Below are positions 4,663-35,229 of a stretch of DNA of 64,000 bases, piece after piece. The notes beneath the pieces were generated by a model. That model was not told the DNA's origin. It worked only from the letters and a program-made list of their open reading frames with translations, and did no database searches. Both the position numbers and the translations under genes were made by a program. How positions within the stretch are numbered: position 1 is the stretch's first letter; each line of letters begins with the position of its first letter. The stretch is from Gammaproteobacteria bacterium (GTDB taxonomy: Bacteria; Pseudomonadota; Gammaproteobacteria; GCA-001735895), in contig JBNKUM010000040.1 in NCBI GenBank assembly GCA_050298595.1, forward strand, positions 1-64,000. The letters are read 5' to 3'.

Positions 4663-4678
4663 TGAGTATTTTCGCAAG

Positions 4679-8810: not shown

Positions 8811-8822
8811 GACTGCCCGCCC

Positions 8823-11634: not shown

Positions 11635-14205
11635 TCACTTTAAATACTGTTTTATAAAGGCGCTTATTCCCTCAATATCAAACCCTTTCGCCAGTTTTAG
11701 TAGCTGATGGGCAAACGGAATGTAAGCCTCATTCTCTGCTTGCAGGCGAGAAGCTATCTCCTGTATTTCAAACACCAGTCCTACATCAGCTAACTGATAC
11801 AATTCATGCAGCTGTTCGCTGGGTGGTATGACCAAAACTGCCTCGCATTCGCTTTCTGCTTCAGCGTATAGCAATGTCAATCCCAGCTGCTTTTCCAGGC
11901 TGTGATAGATTTCTTCGAAGCGGTAGGGTTTGCTGACGTAGTCATCTATGCCTGATGTGCGTAAGGCTTCCTCCTGATCTTTTAAGGCAGAGGCGGTAAC
12001 GGCGACGACCTTCACCTGTTCCCCGCCCGGCAATTCGCGAATGCGACGGGTGGCCTCGACTCCGTCCATGACTGGCATGCGTCGGTCCATCCAGATCAGA
12101 TCTGGTTTCCAGTGCTGGAATATCTGTATGCACTCTTCGCCGTTCTGCGCCACCTTTACCTCCAGACCGAGGTCGGTCATCAGCCTGGCGAGCAGGATTT
12201 GATTGTCCCGCTGGTCCTCGACAATCAGGATGCGGCGGGTGGCCTGCCCCGGCGCGAGGCCTGCCACTGCTCCGTGACTTTCATCACTCAGGCGGATCAT
12301 CTCCGCCTCATCATCAGGCTCATTCAGCGGCAGCTCGACACGAAACAGAGCCCCCTTACCCGGTTTACTTTCTACAGAGACATTTCCTACCATCAGTTGC
12401 ACGAACTGATGCACGATAGCGAGTCCCAGTCCCGTCCCCCCCTGCGAAGAAGAGCCTGAAGACAGTTGTTCGAAAGGCTTGAATAGACGCTGCTGATCCT
12501 TTTTGCTAATCCCCGGACCTGTATCCTCGACCTCGATCAGTAGATGGTGATGGGCATTGTGTTTGCTACGCAGACGGATGGTCACACCGCCCTGTTCGGT
12601 GAACTTCACCGCATTGCTTACCAGATTAACCAGGATCTGCCGTAATCTCGCCTCATCCCCCCTGATTAAGTGAGGCAAATCTGACGATTGATCCAAAGCC
12701 AGTTGCAGCCCCTTCTGTTGCGCCCGCAGACTCATCATGTCACTCACCTCACGCACCAGTTTGTGCAGATCAAAGGTGGTGATCTCCAATTGCAGCTTAC
12801 CTGCCTCTATCTTGGCAATCTCCAGTACATCATTGATCAGTTTGAGCAGGTGATCACCGCTGTTATTGATGATTTCCAGGTTTTCCCGCTGGCTGGCACT
12901 TAGGGACTGATCCTGGCGAACCAGTTGGGAGAAACCGAGGATGGCGTTGAGTGGGGTACGCAATTCATGGCTCATGTTGGCCAGGAAGGCACTCTTGGCT
13001 TTGTTAGCCGAGTCCGCTGCATCGCGTGCCAGGCGCAACTCATGGGTACGTTGCTGGACAGTTTCCTCAAGGTGCTCCCTGTAGCGCAAAAGTTCCTGTT
13101 CCGCTCGTTTACGCTCGCTGAGGTCGTAAACCAGACCAACGAATCCCGTGATTTCCCCCCCTTCGTCCCGCAGCGCAGTCACGGATAAATTCACCGGCAC
13201 TCGCCTTCCATCCTTGCGAATGAAGGTCCATTCGTTTTCCTCGGTAAGATTGCGCCGCGGGCGGGCAGTAAACACGTCAAACCCCACCTGAATCGTTTCG
13301 CCCAGTTCGTCGGTCAACTGTTGGGCATAGCGCGCAACTTCTTCTGGATCGTGCCAGTAACCAGGCGTCTGCTTACCGACTATCTCCTCTGCTGAGTAAT
13401 CCAGCAAACGCTCGGCAGCAGGATTAAAGCTGGTGACGATTCCTTCGGGTGTCGCGGAAATGATGCCGTAGGCCACATTGTCCAGAATCGTGCGTTGAAA
13501 GATCGTAAGCTGGCGCAAGTCATCTTCTCGTTGCTGGATAACCTCCATCATGGCGTTGAAGTTTTTGCCTAGCTGAGCCACTTCATCTGTGCCGTTTGCG
13601 GGAACGCGATGCGTATAGCTCGCACTGGTCCGAACAAGTTCACTCGCCTGTGTCAGTTTTGCAATGGGACGCGTAAGCGTACGCCGCAAAACCAGTAATT
13701 GGGCAACCGTGACCAGAAGCAGAACGAGTACGCCCATGCCGAATATCCACAGGGCCTGCTGCGTTTGCTGACTAAGTTGTTCGAGCCCCATGCTAAGTCG
13801 CAGACGCCCTCCTCCAGGAAGCGCTTGCAGCAGCTCCGCCGTGTTAAGCTCCAGATAGAGGCCATCCGGCCTGGTAAGCAAAGGCGCTGGGGAGGCGTTT
13901 GGTACACGGCTGAAGCGAGCCAGCATCCGCCCGCCATCCAGATAAATGACTGCTTCCCGTATCTGCGGATTTGCACGCAGGGTATCAAGAATCTCCTGGG
14001 CACGGACGGGATCCTCAAATACCACCGCCGCATCCGTGCCAACGGAGACCAGTTGTGCATAAGGTTCCATGATCTGGCGGGTGCGATGCTCCAGGGTAAA
14101 GCTCTGATACAGCACTACCCCAGTGCCGACCATCACAAATGCCAGCAGGGCTGTGCCCCAAAGCACGAGTGCCAGTCTGTTATGTATGTTCAGTTGGATA
14201 GACAT
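11635..14205 (-). CDS. Hybrid histidine kinase: periplasmic YfiN-like sensor, HAMP, PAS, HisKA, HATPase, REC, helical tail
   Basis: Two TMs; [18 protein letters not shown]; [10 protein letters not shown]; DTGPGI; GGTGLGL; [10 protein letters not shown]. Confidence 0.93.
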
Positions 14206-14206
14206 C

Positions 14207-14809
14207 TTATCTCACGTGGCGGAGTTTGCCGTGTTCCAGAATATCACTGGAAACTTCCAGCATTCTGGTCTGTATCTTCAGTGCGGCAGCACGGGCCTGG
14301 TCGAGATTGATGCCCATAGACACCCTATCCACGACCTTAAACCCTATTACCCCACCTTCTCGCAGGAATTCCGGCGCATCACCGACCGTCAGTACCGGCC
14401 TGTTTTTCAATTTATCAAGAACCGAATGACGCTGCGCCGCATCCCTGTATGCAATGAAGATGATCTGGCATGGTGGTAACTCATCCGGCGTATCTGCGCG
14501 GAATATTTCAAACGCACGGCCCTGTTCGCTACGGCCCTCGAAGGTTTTTTCCAGAATCTCGCCAAAGGGATCCCGACCCAGAATGCCGATGCACCAGGGC
14601 GAATCGCTACCGGAAAATGCCTCATCTGGCCAGGTCACGTAGTGAGCGAAGTTGCGCAAAAAAGCAGCCTTGACTCTGTACGGGTTATCCACCACCAACT
14701 CCGCACTCACAACATGGCCTGGCATAGACAGTATGAATAGCAGAAAAATCACACTCAGCCCTGCCCTTGAGCCTCGTAGCAAACAAGAGTATCTGAACTG
14801 CGTTTTCAT
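14207..14809 (-). CDS. YfiR family (DUF4154) periplasmic protein
   Basis: Y.VKAAFL.NFA.YV.WP, C..CQIIFI, VLTVGD, INL..A..A.LKI..RML; start placed at MKTQ. Confidence 0.88.
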   Translation of the reverse strand: MKTQFRYSCLLRGSRAGLSVIFLLFILSMPGHVVSAELVVDNPYRVKAAFLRNFAHYVTWPDEAFSGSDSPWCIGILGRDPFGEILEKTFEGRSEQGRAFEIFRADTPDELPPCQIIFIAYRDAAQRHSVLDKLKNRPVLTVGDAPEFLREGGVIGFKVVDRVSMGINLDQARAAALKIQTRMLEVSSDILEHGKLRHVR

Positions 14810-14822
14810 ACCTGACCCTGAA

Positions 14823-17198
14823 TCAAAACTTTGACGAAAAGGTAAGGAGAAACTCACGCGGACGGCTGCGAGTGCTTTGCGAGGGCCGATAGTGTGCGTT
14901 AGTAAGGTTCTTGCCCATGAGGTCCACACTCATGCGCTGGTCGCGCCTGGCCCAGGAATAGCCAAGCATCACGTTGAGCAGCGTATAGGTCTGATGTGTT
15001 GAGTCAGGGCCACCCGGCAGGATCGTCTGGTCGTAAACATAATTGGCACCGCCACCAACATAAAGACCGTAAAGTCCACCTTCCTTGAAGTCATAGCGCG
15101 TCCACAGGTTGGCCATATGTGGTGCGCTCATTTGCAGGGGGGCGTTGTGCAACAGGCTTACATTCCTGTAATTTTCCTGCCCTGCGGCATCCAGCGTGGA
15201 GGGATCCTGCGCAAGAACAGCCGCATCGTTGCCGCTGAACTCGGTGATCCTGGCGTCCATATAGCTATAGGAAAAGTAGAGCTGCCAGTTGTCGGTCAGT
15301 GTGGCCGTGGCATCCAGTTCGACGCCGCGGGAACGCTGCTCACCGCTCTGCACGTTATAAATCACCACCGAGCCAAAGGCGTCTGTGTGAGCGAGATCAT
15401 TGACGATATTCCGGTTGCGGATATCGAAGAGGGTGAGCGTACCGGATAGACGGCCACCAAATAGATCTGCTTTGACGCCGATATCGTAACCCTGCCCGTA
15501 GGTCGGCCTGGCAGCTGAGGTCGAGCCATCAGGGTTATCGAGGATTTGTGAACCGGGAACGAACGACTCTGAATAGGAGGCATATGCCGAGATAGCAGGG
15601 GTGAGTTTGTACAGCACGCCGTATTGTGGCGTGACCGCACTCGCAGTGATTCGGGGTTGGCTCAGGCTGGTTAAATTGTCGATAATCTGGCTTTCCGTCG
15701 ATGTCTGACGCCAGCCGGTAAGAACCAGCAGACGATCATCAAAAAAACCGAAGGTACTACCGCCGTATATCGATTTGTCGGTGTAGTCGACTCTGCGGTC
15801 ATATGCGTTCTCGGTAAGTGCTGAGCGTGGAAAGGTGCCTGTGCGATCCCAACTGGAGGGATCGCTCAGATCCCACAGCGGAAACGGCGATGCAGTCGGA
15901 TCGCTTCCAAGCGCCGGATCGTTAGGGGCCTGACCGGCCCAGGAATCGAATCGGCGGTCGACGTACTGGGCACCGAGCAGCAGACGCAGGCTGGTGGGGC
16001 CGAATTCGTATTTGCCGACGGCCTCAGCCTCGTAGATGTCACCCCAGTTGGTGTAGGTCTGCCCTCTGACACGTCGGCCCTGTAGAGTGGTTGTATTGTT
16101 GGCCATGCCGAAGTTGCCGGAAAAAAGCGCATCGACTTCGTATATCTGGTGGGCGTAGCCAACTCGTAGGTTCCAGTGATCGTCTGCCTTGAAGTTCAGC
16201 GAGGTATTCAGGCTCTCTGTGTCGCTATTGCGAAAGTCGGCATAGGACATGCTGTTCCAGGTATCCGGCACATCGGCCAGCTCCCCCTGGCGGTTGGGAT
16301 CGGATGCGGTCGGCAGCACGCCACTCTGGCCATCGTAGCCGGGTAGTTGCATAAGTTGCGGTGTTTCCACCTTGCTGAAATTTTCATATTTAAGCGAAAC
16401 ACTCAGGCGATCATTGGGCTGCCACAGCAGGGATGGGGCGACGACTGTCGAGTGCGCATCATAGGGATCCCAGTAGTGCATGTCCTGAGCGTAGGAGGCC
16501 GAGAGCCTGTAGAACAGCGTTTTTGAAGCCGGTCCGGTCACGTCGGCTTGCAGCCGGTATTCGTCGTAAGAACCATTGCTGACATCCGCAGTGGCGGCAT
16601 AGCGGGGCTGTGGGTCCCTGGTAATGACGTTGACGATGCCGCCGGGAGCAACCTGGCCGTACAGGAACGAGGCTGGGCCTTTGACCACTTCCACGCGAGA
16701 TATATTGGTAAAGTCAAAGATCGACGGGCCATGAAAACCGTCGCGCAGAATCTGGATATTGCCGGGTGAGCCACTGACGGCGAAGCCGCGGATGGCAAGG
16801 TTGGCATTACCCTCGTTGAAATCGTTGCTGCGATAGGTGACGCCTGGTGAGTAGCGTGCGACATCAAAGATGTTCGCCGGCTTCTGATCTTCGATGAACG
16901 ACTCGGTAAAGGCCTGGATGGCGAAAGGCAGGTCACGAATCGGCGCGTCGAAGCGGGAACCGGATATGGAGTTCGACGCGCGATAGCCTTTATCCTGACT
17001 GGTGGAAACAACGAAGGGGGAAACCCTGACTTTCACCAGTTCCCCGATATCCATATCAGCTAGTTCTTTCACAGACGCCGTCTCTGCAACGGCATAAACT
17101 TCACTAGCCATAACAGACTGCAGCAACATCAGGCCGGGCACCAACGCTATCTTGACAGCAACTCGAACAGGAAGGCCTGAAAAGATACCCCTTTTCAT
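14823..17198 (-). CDS. TonB-dependent outer-membrane receptor
   Basis: Plug motifs (IRGF, RVEVVKGPASFLYG..PGGIVN), barrel strands, terminal F; start placed at MKRGIF. Confidence 0.92.
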   Translation of the reverse strand: MKRGIFSGLPVRVAVKIALVPGLMLLQSVMASEVYAVAETASVKELADMDIGELVKVRVSPFVVSTSQDKGYRASNSISGSRFDAPIRDLPFAIQAFTESFIEDQKPANIFDVARYSPGVTYRSNDFNEGNANLAIRGFAVSGSPGNIQILRDGFHGPSIFDFTNISRVEVVKGPASFLYGQVAPGGIVNVITRDPQPRYAATADVSNGSYDEYRLQADVTGPASKTLFYRLSASYAQDMHYWDPYDAHSTVVAPSLLWQPNDRLSVSLKYENFSKVETPQLMQLPGYDGQSGVLPTASDPNRQGELADVPDTWNSMSYADFRNSDTESLNTSLNFKADDHWNLRVGYAHQIYEVDALFSGNFGMANNTTTLQGRRVRGQTYTNWGDIYEAEAVGKYEFGPTSLRLLLGAQYVDRRFDSWAGQAPNDPALGSDPTASPFPLWDLSDPSSWDRTGTFPRSALTENAYDRRVDYTDKSIYGGSTFGFFDDRLLVLTGWRQTSTESQIIDNLTSLSQPRITASAVTPQYGVLYKLTPAISAYASYSESFVPGSQILDNPDGSTSAARPTYGQGYDIGVKADLFGGRLSGTLTLFDIRNRNIVNDLAHTDAFGSVVIYNVQSGEQRSRGVELDATATLTDNWQLYFSYSYMDARITEFSGNDAAVLAQDPSTLDAAGQENYRNVSLLHNAPLQMSAPHMANLWTRYDFKEGGLYGLYVGGGANYVYDQTILPGGPDSTHQTYTLLNVMLGYSWARRDQRMSVDLMGKNLTNAHYRPSQSTRSRPREFLLTFSSKF

Positions 17199-17492
17199 CG
17201 CTATCCATCTATTAGGAAATTCGCGCAAGAGGGAACAAGAAATAAAAAGTAGCATCAACATTGATTAGTTCTCCGAAATGGACCCATCAATAGGGTCTGT
17301 TACCTCTCCTAGAATCAATGAGTTAGATTCACTAACTGTCAAATCAAATAGTATAATTTTATTACACAAAGGCATTTTTTATCGAAGTCTCACTGTGCCA
17401 GGCCAGCTAAAAGCTGCGCAGTGGGCTCATCCTTTTCAACTGGGAGATATCATCATTTCTTTTCATATCTTTTTTATTGTTTAACTTCTTTG

Positions 17493-17675
17493 TTCTTTCA
17501 ATCCATATCCTTTAGACATGACCTTTATCACTCATAGAATAGACCATAAATTAATCAATAACTCGCAAAAAAACCAGGATTTGGGAAACAAACTATCCGT
17601 CTATGGCTCTGACAAATTCAATTCATGCAATATATTTGAAGGGTCAGAATGTAGTTCAATTTATTACATGTTCTA
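17493..17675. repeat. Conserved non-coding cassette leader, copy A
   Basis: tccatatcc..ctttatca..gaatagaccataaat..aacaaactatccgtct..acaaattcaattcatg..gtcagaat..tcaatt; similar to 24420-24620 and 45216-45383. Confidence 0.8.
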
Positions 17676-20648
17676 TCACTTTAAATACTGTTTAATAAAA
17701 GCGCTTATCCCCTCAATATCAAAACCTTTGGCCAGTTTCACAAGCTGCTGAGCAAACGGGATATAAGCTTCATTCTCTGCTTGCAGACGAACGGCCATCT
17801 CCTGTATTTCAAATACCAGTCCTACTTCGGCTAACTGATACAACTCGGACAGCTGTTCGCTGGGCGGCGTGACCAGAACTGTTTCGTGTTCACTATCTGC
17901 CTCTTCGTATTCCAATATCAATCCCAACTGTTTTTCCAGGCAGTGGTAGATCTCATCAAAGCGGTAGGGTTTGCTGACGTAGTCATCCATGCCTGATGCG
18001 CGTAAGATTTCTTCCTGCTCTTTTAATGCGGAGGCGGTAACGGCAACGATCTTCACCTGATCCCCGCTCGGCAATTCACGAATGCGTTGGGTGGCTTCGA
18101 CCCCGTCTATGACAGGCATGCGTTGATCCATCCAGATCAGCTCTGGTTTCCAGTCTTTGAAGATCTGTATACACTCCTCGCCGTTCTGCGCCACCTTCAC
18201 CTCCAGGCCAAGGTCAGCCATCAGCCTGGTGAGCAGAATTTGATTATCCAGCTGATCCTCGGCGATCAGGATGCGGTGGCTGGGTTGCCCTGGCGCGAGG
18301 CCTACCACTGCGCCGTCTCTTTCGCCACTCAGGCGGATCACCTCCGCCTCATCGGCCTCTTGCAGCGGCAACTTGACGCGGAATAACGTCCCCTTGCCCG
18401 TTTGACTTTTAACGCTGATGTCTCCCCCCATCAGTTGCACGAACTGGCGCGCGATGGCGAGCCCCAGGCCCGTCCCCCCTTGTGCAGCAGAGCCTGTGGA
18501 CAGTTGTTCGAAGGGTTTGAACAGGCGCTGCTGGTCGATAGAGCTAATCCCAGGACCGGTATCCTCGACCTCGATCAGCAAATGGTGATGTGCATTGTGT
18601 TTGCTGCTCAGGCGGATGGTCACTTTGCCCTGTTCGGTGAACTTCACTGCATTGCTCACCAGATTAACCAGAATCTGCCGTAACCGCGCCTCATCGCCCT
18701 TGATGTAGCGCGGAAACTCAGACGATTGATCCAGCTCCAGTTGCAACGCCTTCTGTAGCGCCCTCAGTTTCATCATCTCGCTCACCTCGCGTACCAGTTC
18801 GTGCAGATCGAAGGTGGCGATCTCCAGATGCAGCTTGCCCGCCTCGATCTTGGCAATCTCCAGTACGTCGTTAATCAGTTTAAGCAGGTGATCACCGCTG
18901 TTGTTGATGATTTCCAGGTTTTCTCGCTGGCTGACACTCAGCGACCGGTCTTTATGCATTAGATGGGAGAAGCCGAGGATGGCATTGAGCGGTGTGCGCA
19001 GCTCATGACTCATATTGGCGAGGAAGGTACTCTTCGCCTTGTTGGCTGCTTCCGCTGCATCGCGCGCCAGCATCAGTTCCGTGGTACGTTGTTGTACCTC
19101 CTCTTCGAGATGGTCACGGTAGCGACGCAGTTCATCCTCTCTCAGCTTCTGCTCGGTGATATCCTGCACCGTACCGACGGAACGCAACGGTTTGCCATCA
19201 GCGTCAAAAAAGCTTTCGCATCGCTCGTGCACGTATTTGAGCCGGCCATCTTTCATTTGCAGTCGGTGTACGATGTTGTAGGGCTTTTTGCTGTTGAGTG
19301 ACTCGGTATAGGCGTTGTTGACCATCTCCCTGTCATCCGGGTGGATCGCGTCCAGGAAGGCTTCGTAGGAGGCGCCGAATTTTTCCTTGCCTATTTCAAA
19401 AATGTGGAATATTTCATCCGACCAGATCAGTACATTATTCAATAGATTCAGCTCCCAACTGCCCAGATGCGCGATGCGCTGAGCTTCGGCCAGACCATGC
19501 TCACTGCGCCGCAGCTTCTCTTCGTCAAGCTTGCGCTCGGTGATATCCTGGATCGCAAAGACCACAGCTTCGATCTCGCCCTGTGCATCAAAGATAGGGG
19601 CACCATTAATCGATAGCAGCACGTGGCGACCATCCGGCCAGGTGATTGCATGCTGGACATCGAATACGGCCTGACGTGCTGCCATCACACGATTGAACGG
19701 TTGCGCCTCATCTGGAAAATGTCCGCCATCTATGGCTGTGGTATGCCATTCGGGAGAGTTGTAGCTGAGCTGGGTGATCTCTTGCTTGCTCAGCCCGAGG
19801 ATGTTTTCTGCCTGCGGGTTGGCGAAGGTGATCTTCCCCTCACGGTTTACCATCGCGATACCGACCGGGCTAGTCAGCATGATACGGTTCAGCAATGTCT
19901 GCTCGTGGAGCAATGCTTTTTCGGAGATCTTACGCTCGATAATTTCCTGTTGCAGGGCGGCGGCGGTCAGCTCCGCCTGCTCTCGCGCCTCAACGGCGTC
20001 TTCCATCAGATTGAACGCAGCAAGGCGGGATGCAACTAGCGTTTCGTTGGTGGACTGTAGTTCTGCAGTGCGTTCCGCCACGCGCTGCTCCAGTCCACGC
20101 GTCTGTGCATCAAGCTGCTGCGCCTGCTGCTCTATGCGTCGCTGGGCCAGGGCATTTCTCAGCGCCAGCGCCAGCACGGGGGAAAGGTGGCTAACAATCC
20201 TGTCCATCTCATCAATCCGATCCACTGTTGGCAGGTCCATCAACAACAACATGCCCACCAGACGGCGTCCCGCATGCAACGGGACGCGCAGCAGTGATTC
20301 AATACCCAGATCCAACAGCAGTGCCCGCAACGGATGATTCTGCGGAAAATCCTCCACACGGCCGGGTAAAATTTCCGAGAAGTTTTGCGTACAAAGCAGA
20401 TCGATACCGGCAGCGGAAAATAAGGTCTTACGCCGGGCTGGGCAGACGTGCAGCAACTCATGCGTATGTAGTTCATCATCGTGAGCGATGACCATGACGG
20501 TGCGGGCGCCAGTCAGTTCACGCAGTTGCTCGGTGAGCTTCTCTCCCATCTGGCTCGCATCGGTGGCAGCGAGCACCTGAGAGAAAACCTCTACTGCCAT
20601 AATTTGATCGGCAGCGTGGGTCGGGCTGCTGCGACCTGTATCACTCAT
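17676..20648 (-). CDS. Cytoplasmic hybrid histidine kinase GAF-PAS-PAS-HisKA-HATPase-REC
   Basis: No TM; GAF-like N-terminus, two PAS/PAC (IHPDDR, DITERK), [21 protein letters not shown]; same C-tail as the 11635 kinase. Confidence 0.93.
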   Translation of the reverse strand: MSDTGRSSPTHAADQIMAVEVFSQVLAATDASQMGEKLTEQLRELTGARTVMVIAHDDELHTHELLHVCPARRKTLFSAAGIDLLCTQNFSEILPGRVEDFPQNHPLRALLLDLGIESLLRVPLHAGRRLVGMLLLMDLPTVDRIDEMDRIVSHLSPVLALALRNALAQRRIEQQAQQLDAQTRGLEQRVAERTAELQSTNETLVASRLAAFNLMEDAVEAREQAELTAAALQQEIIERKISEKALLHEQTLLNRIMLTSPVGIAMVNREGKITFANPQAENILGLSKQEITQLSYNSPEWHTTAIDGGHFPDEAQPFNRVMAARQAVFDVQHAITWPDGRHVLLSINGAPIFDAQGEIEAVVFAIQDITERKLDEEKLRRSEHGLAEAQRIAHLGSWELNLLNNVLIWSDEIFHIFEIGKEKFGASYEAFLDAIHPDDREMVNNAYTESLNSKKPYNIVHRLQMKDGRLKYVHERCESFFDADGKPLRSVGTVQDITEQKLREDELRRYRDHLEEEVQQRTTELMLARDAAEAANKAKSTFLANMSHELRTPLNAILGFSHLMHKDRSLSVSQRENLEIINNSGDHLLKLINDVLEIAKIEAGKLHLEIATFDLHELVREVSEMMKLRALQKALQLELDQSSEFPRYIKGDEARLRQILVNLVSNAVKFTEQGKVTIRLSSKHNAHHHLLIEVEDTGPGISSIDQQRLFKPFEQLSTGSAAQGGTGLGLAIARQFVQLMGGDISVKSQTGKGTLFRVKLPLQEADEAEVIRLSGERDGAVVGLAPGQPSHRILIAEDQLDNQILLTRLMADLGLEVKVAQNGEECIQIFKDWKPELIWMDQRMPVIDGVEATQRIRELPSGDQVKIVAVTASALKEQEEILRASGMDDYVSKPYRFDEIYHCLEKQLGLILEYEEADSEHETVLVTPPSEQLSELYQLAEVGLVFEIQEMAVRLQAENEAYIPFAQQLVKLAKGFDIEGISAFIKQYLK

Positions 20649-21247
20649 GACGATTCTTCCCCTGGCGAACAGACTGAGGCTTCGGCTTCTAGCAGCAGCT
20701 CCAGCAAATGATCCAGCGTGACCGGCTCAACACGCCACGGTAATCCACTATAGTCCGCGCATCCGTCAAGCTCCGCACATGGTACCGGGGCCAGTCCAGT
20801 GTCCAGATAGACCAGTTCCTTGCGATTTTCCCGCATCAGGTCCCGCGCCACTGACGAGGAGAGACCCAGCTCCCTCTGCATGATCTCTTTCCAGCGTAGC
20901 GCCCATTCCGGCAGCAGGATGAATGCTTGCGCCTGCATCAATTCGTGATAACGGGCGCGCCCCACCAGCATTTGCGCGCAGTTGACGGCATGCACCCGCC
21001 CGACCTGAAAGTCGCGTACCAGATCAAGCATGCGGCAGCTGCAATCTCCATACACCACGACCACGCGTTCGCCCCTGGCAACAGACTGCTCCAGCGTAGC
21101 GCTCAGGGTCGTCTCCAGCGTCTGCGGATGCATGTGCAGCATGGAGTCAAGAAACTGCAAGTTACCATCTAGCCTTCCGCTGCGGTGGAGTTCCTCCAGC
21201 TCGCCGCGCAACACGCCGCAACTGATCCAGGTAGTGGAGGGATTCAT
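20645..21247 (-). CDS. DUF1638 family protein
   Basis: ISCGVL..E, LH.HP..L, VVYGDC, VNCAQML, YLDTG; ATGA-coupled on both sides. Confidence 0.8.
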   Translation of the reverse strand: MNPSTTWISCGVLRGELEELHRSGRLDGNLQFLDSMLHMHPQTLETTLSATLEQSVARGERVVVVYGDCSCRMLDLVRDFQVGRVHAVNCAQMLVGRARYHELMQAQAFILLPEWALRWKEIMQRELGLSSSVARDLMRENRKELVYLDTGLAPVPCAELDGCADYSGLPWRVEPVTLDHLLELLLEAEASVCSPGEESS

Positions 21248-22275
21248 ACTTGACTCCTTTCAGCAGAGTAGGTTTCACTGGCCGCGATCATGGCCCGCAG
21301 ATTTTCTTGCGGCGTGCTCAGGGGAATGTCTGCACCCGAGTTGGCCAGGATGAAGGGACCACCAGGTACAGCGTCACACAGGCAGGTCAGGCTGCGCTCG
21401 CGGATCTCTGCGGCGCTGGCGGCGGGGAAACCCAGATTGTCCAGATTGCCCAACAACAGTAGTTCAGGGCCAAGGCATTGCCGTGCTTCTGCCAGGTCGT
21501 CCCTGGAACTGACCACAACCCCGGCCAGCCCCGGCAAACCTGGCAACAAGTCCAGAATAGGATTGACGCGCCCACCCGTGTGGTGGAACACCATCGGGCC
21601 ACGCACGCGCGCGAACATGCTGCGTAGATGCGGCAGCATCTTTTCAGCGAACAGGCTACGCGGGGAGATTTCCACCGACGCCATACCTTCGGTAACAATC
21701 AGGGCGGTGGCACCTGCCTCCAGTAGCGTATTGGCCCAGGTGACGAAAAAGTCGCCGCAATATTCCAGCAATTGCTGCGCTGCGGCTTCATCGAACAACA
21801 GGGTCTCCAACCATGCTTCCAACCCCATAATCAGTGCCGGTAACGCAACAGGGCCGGGCAGCGCTGCGAACACTGGTACCTGTTCAAGGTAAATGGCGCT
21901 CAATTGCTGCGTTGCCTGCACAATAAATGGCAGGCGTCCAGTGCGCAGCGGGTCGGGTAACGGCAACGCGAGCGCCGCTGCGGCAGAGGTCACAGATGGA
22001 CGCTTCAGGTTGGGCGGCTGCTCGTCGAACCAGACCACTTCACCGCCAAACGCCTCCACGATGGCGCTGTAATCGAATGGTGCCAACACCATATCAAGAC
22101 CGAAGGCCTCCTGAACAGCACGTTGCCCAGTGACATAGGCCGCAATATCGCTGTAGAGGGTTCGCAGATCGGTGCCGGTGAGTCTACCGCCATAAGCGCC
22201 GAGGACCGCAAATACCGGCACGCGGTCCACCGGTTTGCCCTGCAAGGTGTTCATCACCCGTTGATAGGCGTTCAT
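21244..22275 (-). CDS. UroD/MtaA-CmuA family TIM-barrel (methylcobamide methyltransferase-like)
   Basis: G..VDRVPV, EAFGGEV, GRLP, GP..L...G, LLGNLD, FILA.SG.DIP..TP.ENL.AM. Confidence 0.88.
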   Translation of the reverse strand: MNAYQRVMNTLQGKPVDRVPVFAVLGAYGGRLTGTDLRTLYSDIAAYVTGQRAVQEAFGLDMVLAPFDYSAIVEAFGGEVVWFDEQPPNLKRPSVTSAAAALALPLPDPLRTGRLPFIVQATQQLSAIYLEQVPVFAALPGPVALPALIMGLEAWLETLLFDEAAAQQLLEYCGDFFVTWANTLLEAGATALIVTEGMASVEISPRSLFAEKMLPHLRSMFARVRGPMVFHHTGGRVNPILDLLPGLPGLAGVVVSSRDDLAEARQCLGPELLLLGNLDNLGFPAASAAEIRERSLTCLCDAVPGGPFILANSGADIPLSTPQENLRAMIAASETYSAERSQV

Positions 22276-22943
22276 GACGGAGTCCCTGCTTTCGCTTCGC
22301 TTTGCAGTCTGCGCAGAAGGGCATCGGCTTCGGCGGCGTTTTCGGACGTGCCATCCGCGCCCACCTCGGCAACGAGATCCGGGCGCCAGTTGAAAACCGC
22401 GCCGCCCACTGCCAGTTTCAGCCGGTCCTGCAAACCCCGTTCGTCGATCAGGGAGCGAACCTTGCGAATATTGAGAGCAGTGGTCTGCATCATGGCAGAC
22501 ACCCCCACCACTGCGGCCTGCACCTCGATGGCTTTATCAACGAACTCTTCCGCCATTACATCGTTACCCAGATCATAAACCTCCCAGCCGGCGGCGCGCA
22601 GGAAAGTCGCCACGATGCGCCGCCCCAGACTGTGGAAATCATCCTCGATGTTGCCTATCACCACCGGGCTCTTATGTGGCGCGCTAGTCCCTGCCTCTGG
22701 CATACAGCGCAGCAGCACGTCTTCGGAAATCTTTGCCGCCACGAAGGTCTGCGCCAGCGACACCGACTCCTTCCCCCACAGGATTCCTATCCGCACGAGC
22801 ACCGGTCCAAGGATGTCCGTGATAACGTGGTCGGGGGGCATTCCCTGCTGGATAATTTGATCTATCAGCACCGCCGCCCCCTCGCGATCAGTTTCGATCA
22901 TGGCCTTCAGCAATTGTTTGATACTGGTTTTGTTAGTATTCAT
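22272..22943 (-). CDS. Corrinoid (B12)-binding protein, MtaC/MttC-like
   Basis: Four-helix cap (IG.LW..SLAQ) plus DFHSLG (DxHxxG), DLG.DV, VGVSAMM.TT, VGGA. Confidence 0.92.
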   Translation of the reverse strand: MNTNKTSIKQLLKAMIETDREGAAVLIDQIIQQGMPPDHVITDILGPVLVRIGILWGKESVSLAQTFVAAKISEDVLLRCMPEAGTSAPHKSPVVIGNIEDDFHSLGRRIVATFLRAAGWEVYDLGNDVMAEEFVDKAIEVQAAVVGVSAMMQTTALNIRKVRSLIDERGLQDRLKLAVGGAVFNWRPDLVAEVGADGTSENAAEADALLRRLQSEAKAGTPS

Positions 22944-24295
22944 TGGGATGGACCTGGGGTTGGAACTTCGGTGAAGTCCAGTTTATAACGCGGTGCCTGA
23001 CCGCTGGCCTCGCACAGTTCGTTGATTTCTCGTTTCAAGTCAATCATGCGCAACTCGCGCCCCGTGGCGGCCCGGTTAAAACGTGCAAGCTCTTCATTGC
23101 TCGCCTGCATCTCCTGCTCTACCCGCTTGCGCTCGTCTATATCCATCCCGATACCGAGCACACGTGCCACTTTGCCTTCCTGATCGCGCTCAGTAGCGAA
23201 CCCCATCACCTGTTGCCAGCGGTATGTTCCATCGGCGTGCCGCATCCGCGCCTCGTAGCGGTATTCGTCTCGTCCACGTGTCATTACATCCTGCATCTTC
23301 TCGGCCACCTGCATGCGGTCATCTGGATGTACAAGTCCCATCCATTCATCCTGGTTCGTGGCCCCCTCCTTCGGCGCGTAGCCGAGCATGCTGTAGTAGG
23401 TGGGCGAGGCGAACCAGTCATCATTCTTTACGTCCCAATCCCAGATACCGATCTGGCTGGCTTCCAGCGTCAGCCGCAGGCGCTTCTCCGATTCCTGCAG
23501 CCGTAGCTCCGCCACCTCGAATTCCCGGGAAATGAGGGTGAGAGGGTCCTTGAATCCTGTTCCGAGTATTGATCGATAGATGAGGTAGAAAGCCGCCAGC
23601 TTAGTGATATGGCCAACCAGATTGGCAAAGCCATACACACTCACATAAGCGGTGAAGGCCAACTCGGATACCACCATGCAGGCAATGGAAGCAGACATCA
23701 GGCGAAAGGCCGTGTCATTGAACTGATCACGCTTTCGGTAAAAGAGGTAGAGCGATACCAGCAACAGCGTGGTAATCACGTATTCGCTGCTAATCTTGAA
23801 CTCGGTCAGCCCCTTGCCGTCGACATAGCAGTCGGGGAAGTTAGCGGAGAAGATCAACGCCAGCAGGAGCAGATCCGCACCGACAAAGGCTGCGATGACG
23901 GCGTGATCGTTGATTTTGCGGCTAACGAAAAACGGCGCTGCCACCAGGGTAGCCGCCTGCAGATAGCGGGCTGCGATCCACAGTTGAGTAGGCAGATTGG
24001 TGCTATCAGGGAACACACCCATGCCTTTGTAGGTCAGAGTATGGATCATGTCGATCAGGGCGATGAAAGCGAAGCCAATGCCAAGTAAGCGAAGATAGCC
24101 GTTGGCCAGATATTCACGGGTGTTCCATGTCACTCCGAACAGCATGAACGCAACGGCAACGGTGACGATCTCGATGATACTATGGAATAGCAGGTAGCTG
24201 AAGAGGCTGCTGGCATAAAGCGCGAGCACGGCAAGGGCGATGCCCATGCCGTACCAGATCTTTTCATGCCAGTATTGCCTGTATCCAGTAGTCAT
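22940..24295 (-). CDS. MASE3 membrane sensor + PAS protein lacking an output domain
   Basis: YLLFHSIIE, D..HTL.YKGMGVF, QLWIAARY, GLT.FKI.SEY, NLVGHI.K (MASE3); PAS_3 (IWDWD, VHPDDR); ends GRELRMIDLKREINEL. GAGG RBS before 24295. Confidence 0.88.
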   Translation of the reverse strand: MTTGYRQYWHEKIWYGMGIALAVLALYASSLFSYLLFHSIIEIVTVAVAFMLFGVTWNTREYLANGYLRLLGIGFAFIALIDMIHTLTYKGMGVFPDSTNLPTQLWIAARYLQAATLVAAPFFVSRKINDHAVIAAFVGADLLLLALIFSANFPDCYVDGKGLTEFKISSEYVITTLLLVSLYLFYRKRDQFNDTAFRLMSASIACMVVSELAFTAYVSVYGFANLVGHITKLAAFYLIYRSILGTGFKDPLTLISREFEVAELRLQESEKRLRLTLEASQIGIWDWDVKNDDWFASPTYYSMLGYAPKEGATNQDEWMGLVHPDDRMQVAEKMQDVMTRGRDEYRYEARMRHADGTYRWQQVMGFATERDQEGKVARVLGIGMDIDERKRVEQEMQASNEELARFNRAATGRELRMIDLKREINELCEASGQAPRYKLDFTEVPTPGPSQ

Positions 24296-24419
24296 ATTCT
24301 CTACCTCTATGAAGCCGAGAGTCCGAAGCGAAAGCAAGCTACAACAGGCCAGCGCATCAGTTGCAATATTTCACAGGATCATTGCTTTGTCTGCTCAAGC
24401 GGAGCCTTAACCCACATTA

Positions 24420-24620
24420 TTCTTTCAGTCCATATCCCTTAGACATAATCTTTATCACCCTTAATCTTTATCACCCTTAAGAATAGACCATAAATCATTC
24501 GATAACTGGTATAAAAAATCAGGGTTTCGCTAACAAACGATCCGTCTGTTGCTCTTACAAATTCAATTCATGGAATATTTTTGAAGAGTCAGAATATAGC
24601 TCAATTCACTACATAATTAA
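24420..24620. repeat. Conserved cassette leader, copy B (with internal 16-bp tandem duplication)
   Basis: Aligns by eye with 17493-17675; aatctttatcaccctt is duplicated. Confidence 0.8.
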
Positions 24621-24671
24621 TCACTTTAAGTTCGGTTTTATAAAAGCGCTTATCCCTTCAATATTGAACCC
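24621..24671 (-). pseudogene. Relic of the 3' end of a deleted hybrid kinase
   Basis: tcactttaa..ttttataaaagcgcttatcccttcaatattgaaccc matches the GF(D/N)[11 protein letters not shown] tail of the intact kinases. Confidence 0.75.
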
Positions 24672-27049: not shown

Positions 27050-27751
27050 ATGAGCGACTCCAGGCAGGTGAATCAGCAAGCGTTAAACGACTACCTGTCA
27101 CAATGCGGACTGGCGCTGCGCGGAATCGGAGAACTTACGCAAGATGACCGGCAGCAATACGGATTGACCGCATCGAAGATTGCGCTCGTAGGCAATGTCG
27201 GTGCGGACATGTGGGGACATTTTTCTGCAGCGGCCGAGTATCATGACGGGCAGCCACATCCGCTGGATCGATGGAGTCGCCGGGTGGCGAATGGGGTATG
27301 CGAGCGTTTCGAGCTAGAAGCAATATTTCCCTTCGATGGACCGCCTTACCTGCCATTCCAACGCTGGGCTCGCAGCGCTGAAGCGCTCGAACAATCTCCA
27401 CTGGGTTTGATGATGCATCCGCAATACGGACTATGGCACGCTTATCGGTTCGCCCTGTTATTACCAGATACCAGTGTCATGCTGAAAGCGCAGCAGGTGG
27501 CATCAGTTTGTGATAGTTGTAGCGATAAACCCTGCCTGCATACCTGTCCGGTTAATGCATTGACCGAGTCGGGCTATGATGTTCCCGCCTGCATCCGTTA
27601 CCTTGAACACGATGTGGATGCAGCCTGTCACCAGCATGGTTGTATGGCGCGCTATCGATGTCCGCAGGGGCAAACCTGGCGTTATCACGATGCGCAAAGT
27701 CAGTTTCATCTGCGCGCTTTCCTGCGCGCCAACCGGAATGCGGCAGTCTAA
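27050..27751 (+). CDS. Fe-S protein with CblC(MMACHC)/QueG-like cobalamin-binding fold
   Basis: HPLDRWS, PFQRWA, LGLMMHPQYGLWHAYR, then CDSC..KPC...CP and C..GC.AR..CP. Confidence 0.7.
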   Translation: MSDSRQVNQQALNDYLSQCGLALRGIGELTQDDRQQYGLTASKIALVGNVGADMWGHFSAAAEYHDGQPHPLDRWSRRVANGVCERFELEAIFPFDGPPYLPFQRWARSAEALEQSPLGLMMHPQYGLWHAYRFALLLPDTSVMLKAQQVASVCDSCSDKPCLHTCPVNALTESGYDVPACIRYLEHDVDAACHQHGCMARYRCPQGQTWRYHDAQSQFHLRAFLRANRNAAV

Positions 27752-29657: not shown

Positions 29658-31682
29658 ATGAAAAACCGTCTGAGCATTCTTATTCTTCTTGCCATATTGC
29701 AGTGTTACAGCATGACACTCGCGCTTGCGAGTGAGGGCGAGAAAATCGATATTACCCAAATATCGTTAGAACAGTTACTTGAGACCGAATTCATTCCAGC
29801 CAGTCGTATTGCACGCCAGATCAGCGACGCCCCTTCAGCCGTTTCAATCATCACCGCCCAGGACATTCATGATTTTGGCTACCGTAGCTTATCTGACATT
29901 CTCAAGAGTATGCGCGGGCTGTATGTAACCTCAGGACTGAATTACGAGTATCTTGGTGGACGCGGCTTCGGCGCCCCCAAAGATTATGCTGGACGCATCA
30001 TGCTGGTCATCGATGGCTATGTCACCAATGAGAATGTCTACAATCAGATATTCCTCGGTGAAGACGCACTCATCAATGTCGATATGATCGATCGTGTGGA
30101 ATACATTCCCGGTCCAGGCTCCACCACCTACGGCAACAGTGCATTTCTCGGCGTCATCAATATCAGGACTAAACGCGGTCGAGACCTTGATAGCGTTCAG
30201 GTGGCTGCCGACGTTGGTGATAATAATAGTCGCAGGGCGCGCCTGAGTTTTGGCAAGCAATTCGATAATGGCGCAGAAATTCTACTCTCTGTATCAAAAA
30301 ATGAAGATGATGGCCTCAGCGTCAAATTTCCAGAACTGGATGACTGGGAGTCATTCTACGGTGACCCCTATACAAACCAGGCGATTTCTCCTATTAAAAA
30401 AACAACCACCGAACGCCTGTTTTTCAAGGGCGGTGTTGACAACTGGACACTGGAACTGGCTACAGGTCAGCGCGATCTAGAAGAAACTGCATTCATGACG
30501 GCCTTCGAACCGGCTGATTTTGCTTCCAGGAACTATATGTCAGACAAAAACAGCTTTCTTAAGCTCAATCATGATAGTGAGTTGTATGAAGATTTAAAAC
30601 TCTCTACCCAGCTGTATTTCGGGCAGTATGAATACAGATCAGATGATCAATCATTTGATGGGTACCAAGAAACTCAGGCATCACAGGGTGAATGGAGAGG
30701 GGTAAGTTTCACCTTTATCGGCAGCTGGTTTGAGCAGCACAAAGTATTATTTGGCATAGAATATCGCGACGATTATCAACAATCCTATAGTAGCGATTTA
30801 TCAGATCCTGCATTTGGTGACTTCTTTAACCAGCAAAATGATTACCATACAACGACCACCAGTGTGTTTGTTCAGGATGAATACCGACTCACAGACAAGC
30901 TAACACTGGTCCCCGGATTACGTTACGACTACATCACTAATTATGGCAGTACTTTAAGCAACTCTATTTTCTCCGCCCCTTTCAGCAGCGAAACTGATTT
31001 AGATAACTCTCTCAGCCCACGTATTGCCGCTATTTACCAGCCCTGGCCTGCATCGATATTCAAACTTTCCTACGGTAGGGCATTTCGCAACATCAACCCC
31101 TGGGAAGATATCAAGTATATTTTCAGCGCCCCTCCCAGCAAAAAGGAAGCTATTTCGACCCTGGAACTGGTCTGGCAGCAGCAAATAAGCTCTAAAACAC
31201 GATCAACTGTCTCGCTTTATCGTAATAAAATCACGGATGCCATTTCGCCGATTTATTACGATCTGGACACTCTCGGGCAGGAGATAGGGATAGAGCATGT
31301 TAGCCGTGATGGCTTCAGGCTGAATGCCAGCCTGGCTCACCAGGTCACAGAAGATAATTTTGGCCAATGGTTATACAACTCACCACACTGGTTGGCAAAA
31401 TTGAATATGGCGCAACCCTTATTCCAGAACAAAGCCACACTAGGGTTTGAGCTACAAACAACGGGTGATCGTCTTGATATTGAGCGTAACGATGTCAGTT
31501 CAGATACTGTAGCCAACCTTACGCTAAGCTCCAACCAGGTATTACCAAATACCGACATCAGATTCAGCATACGTAACCTGTTCGATGCCCAACGGAAGGA
31601 TGTGCTGAAACACGATGTATTGACCGCCTTACCTCTGGAAGGGCGTAATTTCTGGTTACAACTGGAGTACAACTTCAGATGA
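29658..31682 (+). CDS. TonB-dependent receptor (YfiR-associated type), copy 1
   Basis: Signal peptide, ISLEQLL, APSAVS.ITA.DI, IDRVEYIPGPGS..YG, terminal EYNFR. Confidence 0.92.
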   Translation: MKNRLSILILLAILQCYSMTLALASEGEKIDITQISLEQLLETEFIPASRIARQISDAPSAVSIITAQDIHDFGYRSLSDILKSMRGLYVTSGLNYEYLGGRGFGAPKDYAGRIMLVIDGYVTNENVYNQIFLGEDALINVDMIDRVEYIPGPGSTTYGNSAFLGVINIRTKRGRDLDSVQVAADVGDNNSRRARLSFGKQFDNGAEILLSVSKNEDDGLSVKFPELDDWESFYGDPYTNQAISPIKKTTTERLFFKGGVDNWTLELATGQRDLEETAFMTAFEPADFASRNYMSDKNSFLKLNHDSELYEDLKLSTQLYFGQYEYRSDDQSFDGYQETQASQGEWRGVSFTFIGSWFEQHKVLFGIEYRDDYQQSYSSDLSDPAFGDFFNQQNDYHTTTTSVFVQDEYRLTDKLTLVPGLRYDYITNYGSTLSNSIFSAPFSSETDLDNSLSPRIAAIYQPWPASIFKLSYGRAFRNINPWEDIKYIFSAPPSKKEAISTLELVWQQQISSKTRSTVSLYRNKITDAISPIYYDLDTLGQEIGIEHVSRDGFRLNASLAHQVTEDNFGQWLYNSPHWLAKLNMAQPLFQNKATLGFELQTTGDRLDIERNDVSSDTVANLTLSSNQVLPNTDIRFSIRNLFDAQRKDVLKHDVLTALPLEGRNFWLQLEYNFR

Positions 31683-32203
31683 GCCTGAACCTACGCCAAC
31701 TGTTACTCCTGTCATGCTGCCTGCTCGGTTTCGGCTTTGCTAGCTACGTTCATGCGCGCGAGGCACTACCGGAATATACACTCAAGGCGGCCTATCTATA
31801 CAAATTTGCATTATTGACCGAATGGCCAGCCGATACCCTGGGCAACAATATTAACTTATGCTTTATAGCTGACGAGGATTTCGGCAAAGCACTTGACTCC
31901 ATTCAAGGAAAACAGATCAACAATAGGCCCATTAATACTCGCCCTATAGTGAGCGCTGAACAAACAGGAAACTGCAATATTATTTTCATCGGACAAATGA
32001 CTCATACAAACCTCCCGGACCTGATAAGTGAAATATCCACTCAACCCATATTAACCGTCACGGATGACGAGCAGCTGGCCAAATCAGGAGCATGCATATT
32101 CTTACGCCCACAAGGCCAACGTCTGGTGTTTGAAATTAATACAGAAGTCGCTCAAAGTGCTAAGCTTAACATCAGCTCTCGTTTGTTACGTCTTTCAAAG
32201 TAG
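31679..32203 (+). CDS. YfiR family protein, copy 1
   Basis: EY.LKAAYLYKF...EWP, CNIIFI, ILTVTD, FEIN...A..AKL.ISSRLL.L; ATGA overlap. Confidence 0.9.
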   Translation: MSLNLRQLLLLSCCLLGFGFASYVHAREALPEYTLKAAYLYKFALLTEWPADTLGNNINLCFIADEDFGKALDSIQGKQINNRPINTRPIVSAEQTGNCNIIFIGQMTHTNLPDLISEISTQPILTVTDDEQLAKSGACIFLRPQGQRLVFEINTEVAQSAKLNISSRLLRLSK

Positions 32204-34708: not shown

Positions 34709-35229
34709 GCCTGAACCTACGCCAACTGCTACTCCTGTCATGCTGCCTGCTCGGTTTTGGCCATGCCAGCTATGTTCATGCACGCGAGGCGCTACCGGAA
34801 TATACCCTGAAGGCTGCCTATCTATACAAATTTGCATTATTGACCGAATGGCCAGCCGATACCCTGGGCAACAGTATTAACTTATGCTTTATAGCTGACG
34901 AGGATTTCGGCAAAGCACTTGACTCCATTCAAGGAAAACAGATCAACAATAGACCCATCAATACTCGCCCTATAGTGAGCGCTGAACAAACAGGAAACTG
35001 CAATATTATTTTCATCGGACAAATGACTCATACAAACCTCTCGGACCTGATAAGTGAAATATCCACTCAACCCATATTAACCGTCACGGATGACGAGCAG
35101 CTGGCCAAAGCAGGAGCAAGCATATTCTTACGCCCACAAGGCCAACGCCTGGTGTTTGAAATCAATACAGAAGCCGCCCAAAGTGCTAAACTTAATATCA
35201 GCTCCCGTTTGTTACGTCTTGCAAAGTAA
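34705..35229 (+). CDS. YfiR family protein, copy 2
   Basis: A few substitutions versus copy 1. Confidence 0.9.
   Translation: MSLNLRQLLLLSCCLLGFGHASYVHAREALPEYTLKAAYLYKFALLTEWPADTLGNSINLCFIADEDFGKALDSIQGKQINNRPINTRPIVSAEQTGNCNIIFIGQMTHTNLSDLISEISTQPILTVTDDEQLAKAGASIFLRPQGQRLVFEINTEAAQSAKLNISSRLLRLAK

Follow-up and report, generated by a model that had tools for sequence, protein, structure and literature searches.

The stretch of DNA analyzed here (the window) comprises positions 1 to 64,000 of contig JBNKUM010000040.1 in the gammaproteobacterial assembly GCA_050298595.1, and its subject is an operon of five minus-strand genes, arranged head to tail, that encode a MASE3-PAS membrane protein, a corrinoid (B12-binding) protein, a URO-D-like protein, a DUF1638 protein, and a GAF-PAS-PAS hybrid kinase (Table 1). 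Genes 2 to 4 (the trio), whose families ordinarily serve B12-dependent methyl transfer, and the N-terminal GAF domain of gene 5 form a cassette that recurs across bacteria and is quite probably a signaling input rather than a pathway. An earlier sequence-only reading of the window had described the five genes as joined by four consecutive ATGA overlaps, with signaling proteins at both ends of the operon and no substrate methyltransferase or activase within it. These observations were borne out: at all four junctions, checked in the sequence, the TGA stop of one gene overlaps the ATG of the next, Pfam assigned MASE3-PAS to the first gene and a hybrid kinase to the last, and neither an MtaB/MttB/MtrH-type methyltransferase nor a RACo/RamA activase was found among the 15 neighboring open reading frames (ORFs) scanned in the window. 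The open frame of gene 1 begins at a TTG (22940-24337), and the ATG at 24295 has GAGGT 8 nt upstream.

Table 1. Positions of the operon genes, kinase segments, and repeated elements in the window.
Feature	Position	Strand	Details
Gene 1, MASE3-PAS	22940-24295	minus	Pfam MASE3 E 3.1e-82, PAS_3 E 8.8e-22
Gene 2, corrinoid protein	22272-22943	minus	Pfam B12-binding_2 and B12-binding
Gene 3, URO-D-like protein	21244-22275	minus	Pfam URO-D E 1.7e-52
Gene 4, DUF1638 protein	20645-21247	minus	Pfam DUF1638 E 6e-25
Gene 5, GAF-PAS-PAS hybrid kinase	17676-20648	minus	Pfam GAF, two PAS, HisKA, HATPase_c, REC
Gene 5, cassette-specific N-terminal GAF	20124-20648	minus	Kinase residues 1-175
Gene 5, coiled coil and two PAS	19179-20123	minus	Residues ~176-490; Pfam PAS_4 260-373, PAS_3 407-494
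Gene 5, transmitter half (HisKA, HATPase_c, REC, 75-residue C-terminal domain)	17676-19178	minus	Residues 491-990
~190-nt repeat, upstream copy	24440-24660	minus	Within 555-nt operon leader; blastn and alignment
~190-nt repeat, downstream copy	17500-17720	minus	Kinase 3' end and spacer before TonB-receptor operon
~190-nt repeat, third copy	45240-45460	minus	blastn
TonB/DUF4154 repeat unit 1	14823-17261 / 14207-14929 / 11635-14205		
TonB/DUF4154 repeat unit 2	29658-31682 / 31679-32203		
TonB/DUF4154 repeat unit 3	32687-34708 / 34705-35229 / 35249-36484		

Starting from an alignment of 28 URO-D-like relatives, one genome per species was scanned, which gave 46 loci whose gene order was read by tblastn with the window proteins. 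The order corrinoid protein, URO-D, DUF1638, and GAF-bearing protein was found at 39 of the 46 loci and at 39 of the 41 that were informative; five of the other seven (L008, L018, L029, L049, and L052) end at a contig edge before the GAF gene, and the remaining two (L047 and L050) are lone URO-D paralogs in Geomonas, that of L047 lying between polyphosphate kinase and hydrogenase genes. L048, one of the 39, has neither DUF1638 nor the whole of URO-D. In-frame stops or frame breaks occur in the corrinoid gene of L028 (9360-9998), the DUF1638 gene of L035 (2229-2699), and the GAF of L016 (11656-11934). By database and tree labels, the loci fall into about nine phyla, namely Thermodesulfobacteriota (26 loci), Verrucomicrobiota (6), Myxococcota (4), Pseudomonadota (3), and Omnitrophota, Planctomycetota, Riflebacteria, Spirochaetota, and Lentisphaerota (one each), with the phylum of two loci unassigned; most carriers are Geobacteraceae, Syntrophaceae, Verrucomicrobiota, and similar bacteria, which are largely dwellers of dark, anoxic places. 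The closest named copy, at 79-81% identity, is labeled Candidatus Thiodiazotropha (L008), and near-identical copies are found at L052 and L005.

Among 51 of the 137 flanking ORFs, mostly the nearest on the same strand (opposite-strand and farther ORFs were outside the scan), no MtaB/MttB/MtrH- or pterin-type methyltransferase and no RACo/RamA was found; these 51 ORFs are unrelated housekeeping genes or further signaling proteins, and a DNA-binding response regulator adjoins the cassette at only one scanned locus, L009. Kinases with an ETR1_N (ethylene-receptor-like) domain adjoin it at L012 (13867-18354), L031 (13786-17619), and L042 (5822-6934), two of the three being fused to a copper-type P-type ATPase, and the neighbors also include a hemerythrin at L042 and, at L014, a rubredoxin-like PAS protein. 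In an independent sample, DUF1638 was sought in 301 Pseudomonadota genomes and found in 46, and the 29 best loci outside the present genome were classed. Twenty-one of them were without URO-D; DUF1638 there is 39-49% identical to the metabolic copy of this genome (27% in L063), 13 of the 21 have a 71-76% identical corrinoid protein alongside, and three have MTHFR, pterin-methyltransferase, or RACo genes within 1.5-kb flanks. The other eight carry corrinoid protein, URO-D, and DUF1638, and in every case the trio is followed by a signaling protein, six with a kinase core and two with PAS/GAF domains. The neighborhoods in both samples thus show the URO-D-containing trio in the company of signaling genes, not usually without them, and they strongly support the proposal of the sequence-only reading that an enzyme module has been repurposed as a receptor.

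Pairwise distances were compared, with 2000 permutations, for the window and the 34 loci in which all four parts are full-length. GAF distances correlated with those of the corrinoid protein, URO-D, and DUF1638 at r of 0.85, 0.73, and 0.82, the members of the trio correlated among themselves at 0.81-0.88, and none of the 2000 permutations reached any of these values. In a control of 27 loci with a HisKA-type core, the kinase core gave r of 0.34-0.49 against the trio and 0.51 against its own GAF. Shared descent inflates such correlations, and their informative part is the contrast between GAF and kinase core: by these distances, the GAF tracks the trio in evolution, but its own kinase core does not.

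The window GAF is 29-57% identical to the GAF of the gene that follows DUF1638 at 37 loci, and R43, R72, and R144 are invariant. Its structural model (predicted local distance difference test [pLDDT] score 82.6) has a GAF fold; a fold search showed GAF identity only, the nearest solved folds being bilin-binding GAFs, in a Protein Data Bank (PDB) in which phytochromes are over-represented. A profile of 38 GAF sequences (L016 and L027 left out) was searched against 1.84 billion cluster representatives and matched 82 at E<=1e-30 and 461 at E<=1e-10. In almost every listed match the domain occupies residues ~10-175; in three it is preceded by ~205 residues, the room that a fused DUF1638 would take up. 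The domains found in the first 65 of the 82 matches were HATPase_c (51), HisKA (40), REC (27), HisKA_2 (9), HD_5 (2), PocR (2), GGDEF (1), EAL (1), and DUF1638 (1). At the cassette loci themselves, 38 of 39 GAF proteins were scanned (a 59-residue fragment was left out), and 33 have a kinase ATPase domain, three of these being of HisKA_2/HWE type; the protein at L028 has an HD_5 (HD-GYP-type) domain, that at L010 has PocR and PAS and runs off the contig, and those at L016, L048, and L051 are broken or cut.

Pfam matches in the window kinase were strong for HisKA (E 1.1e-21), HATPase_c (E 1.7e-32), and REC (E 5e-21), and no HPt domain was found in it by Pfam. The transmitter is 79% identical over 526 residues to that of the CHASE8-HAMP-PAS kinase at 11635-14205 and 82% identical over 499 residues to that of the REC-PAS kinase at 39299-41692. 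Its last 75 residues match no Pfam family and contain no histidine; this C-terminal domain is present in eight copies in the genome, all ending hybrid kinases and 61-87% identical to this copy (17676-17903, 11638-11862, and 39323-39547, and contigs C67, C94, and C48), and an Atlas search with the last 86 residues of the kinase returned unnamed clusters only. The eight kinases that share the domain may converge on one downstream partner. A GAF-PAS head on a locally amplified transmitter, beside classical sensors, is what would be expected of an input module.

The DUF1638 protein (PF07796, 88.4 bits against a gathering threshold of 27) is joined to signaling domains in several relatives. Sixteen longer relatives were found, comprising nine URO-D+DUF1638 fusions, three DUF1638+kinase fusions, two DUF1638-(GAF)-PAS-HD_5 proteins, one DUF1638-PAS-GGDEF protein, and one without any other Pfam domain, and DUF1638 and GAF lie in one open frame at L016, L027, and L028. 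The fusions to signaling domains point to DUF1638 as the part likely to touch the signaling protein, and we propose from these arrangements that it may be the bridge between the corrinoid/URO-D pair and that protein. C10, H38, C69, and C90 are invariant in 38 sequences, and C69 and C90 are common to the type 1, type 2 (see below), and metabolic forms of DUF1638, C10 and H38 being found in 4 of 5. An AlphaFold2 model was obtained with pLDDT 93.2. A sequence search of solved structures gave no DUF1638 relative (best E 0.13), Foldseek with the model gave the cobalt chelatase CbiK as top match (E 8.6e-4, template-modeling score 0.38), and VIA-align gave generic flavodoxin-like and periplasmic-binding-protein folds (Z <=8.4). 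In Phaeobacter inhibens the DUF1638 gene is co-fit with a split MetH and a RamA-like protein, and the portion of that study drawn on here offers no specific function (PMC5764234). In the list given by a 2025 paper, DUF1638 stands together with RamA, with a predicted role in recharging cobalamin (PMC12478193).

A sister arrangement (type 2, the window cassette being type 1) was found in a genome of the same genus (L062; G002 contig C141, 1115-7135), where a corrinoid protein and a zinc-less URO-D are accompanied by a 583-residue DUF1638-kinase fusion and a REC-PAS-GGDEF-EAL protein. At L061 (G037 contig C77), also of type 2, the DUF1638 protein has a ~230-residue C-terminal extension of no known family. 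Some genomes hold a type-2 cassette within 10 kb of a type-1 cassette (L009, 3684-9306; L044, 16202-19108; L013, 16476-18130); the gene after the type-2 trio of L009 encodes a PAS-GAF protein of 1131 residues whose end carries the coiled tail also seen in the window MASE3-PAS, and at L044 a stop-to-stop frame with a DUF1638 match also has a weak match to that tail. A careful tree supported the split between the two types (100/98) and some cross-phylum pairs. The pairing of the window URO-D with L008 and L009, seen in a quick tree, was dropped, as its placement is not resolved by the careful tree. The URO-D-like gene is found in four of 61 related genomes, the present one being among the four, and two of the four have the type-1 form.

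The corrinoid protein consists of a helical cap (PF02607, E 7.6e-12) followed by a Rossmann-type B12-binding domain (PF02310, E 1e-23). The sequence-only reading had pointed to an intact DxHxxG, and this His-on motif is indeed present as DFHSLG at residues 102-107 and is kept in 42 of 42 aligned relatives, with D102, F103, H104, L106, and G107 invariant. Against TIGR02370 (the MtaC/MtbC/MtgC type) the protein scored 128.5 bits, below the cut-off of 215.3, and it fits methyltransferase-type models better than CarH (E 2e-37 versus 2.4e-12). Light-responsive cobalamin-binding domains are marked by an EH pair ten residues past the GxxW tryptophan (PMC11796333). The window protein has G53xxW56 and the DxH histidine, but T66-F67 stands where the EH pair would be, and almost all of the 42 relatives have Phe at position 67.

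The URO-D-like protein likewise fell below model cut-offs, with 136.5 bits against 235.4 for the MtaA/CmuA model TIGR01463 and 146.7 against 244 for PRK06252, and the middle three proteins are related to the methanogen families without belonging to them. Its closest solved structure, found with a profile of 28 close relatives, is MtaA of Methanosarcina mazei (4AY7, E 1.2e-23), in which His-x-Cys...Cys presumably provides the ligands of a thiol-activating zinc. In the alignment, 'HIC' and 'GCG' of MtaA lie opposite 'HHT' and 'GAD'; none of the 28 family members has Cys at either zinc-site column, the adjacent D316 is invariant, and the URO-D proteins of type-2 cassettes are likewise without both cysteines. 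The absence of the zinc site makes a role as thiol methyltransferase unlikely. Of the resemblance to a corrinoid methyl-transfer system noted in the sequence-only reading, the homology is therefore real, but the corrinoid and URO-D proteins score below the NCBIfam cut-offs and the 'MtaA-like' protein is without HxC...C. The UroD superfamily includes phenolic O-demethylases that load methyl groups onto corrinoid proteins (PMC10418091), so a zinc-less member could be a methyl-loading enzyme, and on this similarity the URO-D-like protein might be the very methyl-loading enzyme that the sequence-only reading held to be missing. At least 120 relatives were present among the matches listed (59-98% identity), three of them URO-D+DUF1638 fusions.

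The MASE3-PAS protein consists of a membrane sensor domain, a PAS domain, and a conserved coiled tail (NEELxRFNRxxxxRELRMIxLKxEINxL), with no output domain; against NF047874 (MASE3 sensor histidine kinase) it covers positions 2-385 of 655 with 224.9 bits (cut-off 560) and has no kinase core. It was counted as part of the sensory unit in the sequence-only reading, but a MASE3-PAS gene lies upstream of the cassette only in the window, L052, and L005, which places it outside the conserved unit and limits it to this lineage. The same tail ends PAS-only or REC-PAS proteins directly upstream in four Verrucomicrobiota loci (L009, L010, L013, and L033). It is found once in this genome, 20 times in five other cassette genomes, and three times in a word-based search, and seven tail sites away from cassettes have no corrinoid-protein, DUF1638, or GAF genes alongside. 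The tail was thus rejected as a cassette-specific docking element and is regarded as a general motif, and MASE3-PAS is treated here, from its distribution, as a putative lineage-specific second input outside the core.

Taking the comparative data together, we consider it moderately probable that the corrinoid protein, the zinc-less URO-D-like protein, DUF1638, and the N-terminal GAF act as one sensory input module in the manner that follows, in which we infer which parts bind one another, what chemistry takes place, and whether a methyl donor, an oxidant, or the redox state is sensed. The URO-D-like enzyme and the corrinoid protein would set the state of the protein-bound cobamide, as methyl-Co(III), Co(I), or oxidized Co(II), in response to a methyl donor, an oxidant, or both; DUF1638, elsewhere genetically tied to keeping corrinoid proteins active, would bind the pair in a state-dependent manner and relay that state through contact with the GAF or, in the sister cassette, with the kinase itself; and the GAF would then switch whichever output is attached. 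In this genome the output would be the locally duplicated hybrid-kinase transmitter that several other sensors also use, with a second input probably coming from the upstream MASE3-PAS membrane protein, which has no output domain and is translationally coupled. An unlikely elaboration would make the cassette a chemoreceptor with the methyl group as its first signaling currency: the zinc-less URO-D would take a methyl group from an environmental donor (a methyl halide, a methylated sulfur compound, or a methoxylated aromatic) and place it on the corrinoid protein. That methyl group, or else the oxidation state in which oxidants such as N2O or O2 leave the cobalt, would be accepted or sensed by the invariant DUF1638 cysteines, and contact with the GAF would turn this protein-bound methyl or redox mark into phosphorylation or cyclic di-GMP turnover. 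What is kept of the sequence-only interpretation as a whole is the repurposing of an enzyme module as a receptor. The place of MASE3-PAS in the unit is not supported, and the zinc-less 'MtaA-like' protein is unlikely to be a thiol methyltransferase. That interpretation also had the kinase GAF itself read the cobalt state, where the fusions point to DUF1638 as the part in touch with the signaling protein.

Several points weigh against the sensory module as proposed. No Cys or His is invariant in the aligned GAFs, and nothing marks a cofactor site in them; DUF1638 has a generic alpha/beta fold with matches at background level, so that no function can be drawn from it; and the strong conservation of the URO-D-like protein (mean column identity 71%, many invariant polar residues) fits, as a sequence pattern, an enzyme with real turnover. 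For most loci the source is a metagenome bin, a few loci have frame breaks, and the inflation by shared descent mentioned above applies to the distance correlations. RACo-type activases are encoded elsewhere in such genomes (two copies in this one, on contigs C110 and C9, and at least one in four of five other cassette genomes), which leaves room for a metabolic role in trans, and none was found in one complete 4.9-Mb cassette genome, which raises the question of how Co(I) would be regenerated.

The metabolic role just mentioned would make the trio an ordinary corrinoid methyltransferase system whose methyltransferase and activase act in trans and whose kinases regulate expression, sensing the substrate through their own GAF and PAS domains. 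The family resemblance to MtaC/MtaA is real, and besides the second RACo the genome holds an apparently metabolic corrinoid cluster (L003; contig C110, 38000-55807) with formate-tetrahydrofolate ligase (FTHFS), a GFA-family protein, a corrinoid protein, a DUF1638 protein 22% identical in alignment to that of the window, MTHFR and a protein of its C-terminal domain, a pterin-binding methyltransferase, and a RACo-type activase, flanked by a 428-residue protein without Pfam family. A precedent is offered by the mec cassette, a corrinoid pathway with its own PocR-kinase (10.1101/2021.08.30.458270), and PocR domains, as in the mec kinase MecA, are found in or beside the cassette at L010 (4145-6526) and L042 (6934-9321). 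Such a pathway is nonetheless unlikely here: none of the 51 flanking ORFs scanned encodes a partner methyltransferase or activase, and a DNA-binding response regulator stands beside a single scanned locus; DUF1638 is fused to kinases and cyclic di-GMP enzymes, and outputs include HD-GYP, GGDEF, and EAL; the GAF co-evolves with the trio and not with its own kinase core; and the zinc site for thiol methylation is absent.

A sensor of cobamide supply or identity, in which the holo/apo state or the lower ligand is the signal and the URO-D-like and DUF1638 proteins serve as loading or chaperone factors, seems a rather improbable reading. The conserved His-on motif and cap imply real cofactor binding, and the top Foldseek match of DUF1638 is a cobalt chelatase, albeit a weak one; Price et al. 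weighed a role of DUF1638 in B12 synthesis and argued against it (PMC5764234). No cobalamin riboswitch and no B12 transport or synthesis gene was recognized beside the cassette in the window, the DUF1638 fold matches are at background level, and the genes flanking the cassette across loci are unrelated to B12. We give an equally slim chance to a trio that makes or demethylates a small molecule, the product of which the GAF would bind as a classical ligand without protein contact. GAF domains commonly bind small molecules, the three invariant arginines could hold an anionic ligand, and the URO-D-like protein looks catalytically constrained, but the fusion of DUF1638 directly to GAF, or to kinases without GAF, argues for signaling by contact, and no methyl acceptor enzyme was found among the scanned neighbors. 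A B12 photoreceptor, in which light would cleave the upper ligand of the cobamide and the URO-D-like and DUF1638 proteins would re-methylate or reset it in the dark, is very improbable even though cobalamin-binding domains fused to GAF, diguanylate-cyclase, and other domains sense light (PMC11796333) and the GAF model is nearest to bilin-binding GAFs (allowing for the phytochrome-rich PDB), as the EH pair is replaced by T66-F67 with Phe67 in nearly all relatives, the corrinoid protein matches methyltransferase-type models better than CarH, and the carriers are mostly Geobacteraceae, Syntrophaceae, Verrucomicrobiota, and the like, from bins.

Around the operon, the window holds a TonB-dependent receptor, a YfiR-like protein, and a CHASE8 hybrid kinase downstream and a divergent hydantoinase-like gene upstream. 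A promoter and terminator scan of the operon gave counts at chance level, and at Rfam gathering thresholds no cobalamin riboswitch was found in the window, including near the neighboring TonB receptor. The G+C content is 56.4% for the operon, 45.0% for the genome, and 54% for the paralogous kinases. By genome-wide blastn, a ~190-nt repeat has three copies in the 5.49-Mb genome, all in the window. It spans the final codons of a hybrid-kinase gene together with the spacer that follows, the upstream copy being a relic of such a gene end. Downstream of every copy lies a minus-strand operon whose last gene encodes a kinase with a transmitter of this family. The corrinoid operon has a copy on either side, an arrangement that suggests recombination between the ends of paralogous kinase genes. 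Three repeated units each pair a TonB-dependent receptor with a YfiR-like DUF4154 protein, and in two of the units a CHASE8 sensor follows, which is a hybrid kinase in one and a diguanylate cyclase in the other. A minus-strand cluster at 3826-10580 encodes a SecA-like ATPase of 663 residues and a pair of HlyD-type proteins, one of which begins with GAF domains; it also encodes a protein of 715 residues for which HlyD_3 and peptidase-M50 gave weak matches below threshold. On the plus strand, a 233-residue ORF without family (27050-27751) has a sub-threshold match to the B12-trafficking protein MMACHC (E 0.032, 14.3 bits against 27), and 62918-63200 matches the 5' ureB small RNA in Rfam (98.4 bits, gathering threshold 40).

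Riboswitches for B12 exist, and the B12-based sensors found in the literature are photoreceptors; a literature search, in which supplements were not covered, found no paper describing the cassette. The gene arrangements reported here point to an undescribed kind of B12-based chemical sensor. If true, a conserved and horizontally spread module that links corrinoid methyl-transfer chemistry to kinase or cyclic di-GMP signaling would be a new principle of bacterial sensing, DUF1638, which fitness data tie to the upkeep of corrinoid proteins and which is without a proposed function, would gain a first functional handle, and a set of otherwise orphan kinases of sediment, groundwater, and symbiont-related bacteria would be marked as responsive to one defined chemistry, be it a methyl donor, an oxidant, or low-potential redox. 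Cultured carriers in Geomonas and Geomesophilobacter (L038, L041, L044, and L045) make the idea directly testable.

Among known systems, MtaC/MtaA of Methanosarcina has the same cap-plus-Rossmann corrinoid protein with DxHxxG beside a URO-D-fold partner, whereas the cassette has no MtaB-type partner or activase in the operon, no HxC...C cysteines, and a GAF link to signaling. The DUF1638 of the split methionine synthase and MtgC glycine-betaine systems of Rhodobacterales directly follows the corrinoid gene (PMC5764234; PMC12478193). Copies of this metabolic type, also present on contig C110 of this genome and at 21 of the 29 sampled Pseudomonadota loci, have no URO-D between and no signaling gene after them and go with MTHFR, a pterin-binding methyltransferase, and RACo. 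The mec cassette resembles the window in holding a corrinoid protein, an MtaA/CmuA-family protein, a protein of unknown function, and a sensor kinase in one cluster, but it also has MtrH and further methyltransferases, RACo, a transporter, a DNA-binding regulator, and a kinase with PocR input, and it has been read as a catabolic pathway with its regulator (10.1101/2021.08.30.458270). Type 1 mlp clusters, like the cassette, are widespread in anaerobes, apparently horizontally transferred, and pair an MtaA-like UroD-superfamily protein with a corrinoid protein and no tetrahydrofolate methyltransferase; unlike it, they have two or three Mlp paralogs and a Ram/RACE activase and were proposed to serve methyl-sulfur or selenide metabolism, and a term search of that paper returned no mention of sensors, GAF, or DUF domains (PMC10418091). 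CarH-type photoreceptors share with the cassette the use of a cobalamin-binding domain as sensory element with varied outputs, but they are single proteins or fusions with GxxW/EH/GxxH, whereas the corrinoid protein of the cassette is without EH, is of the methyltransferase type, and is accompanied by two further obligatory proteins (PMC11796333).

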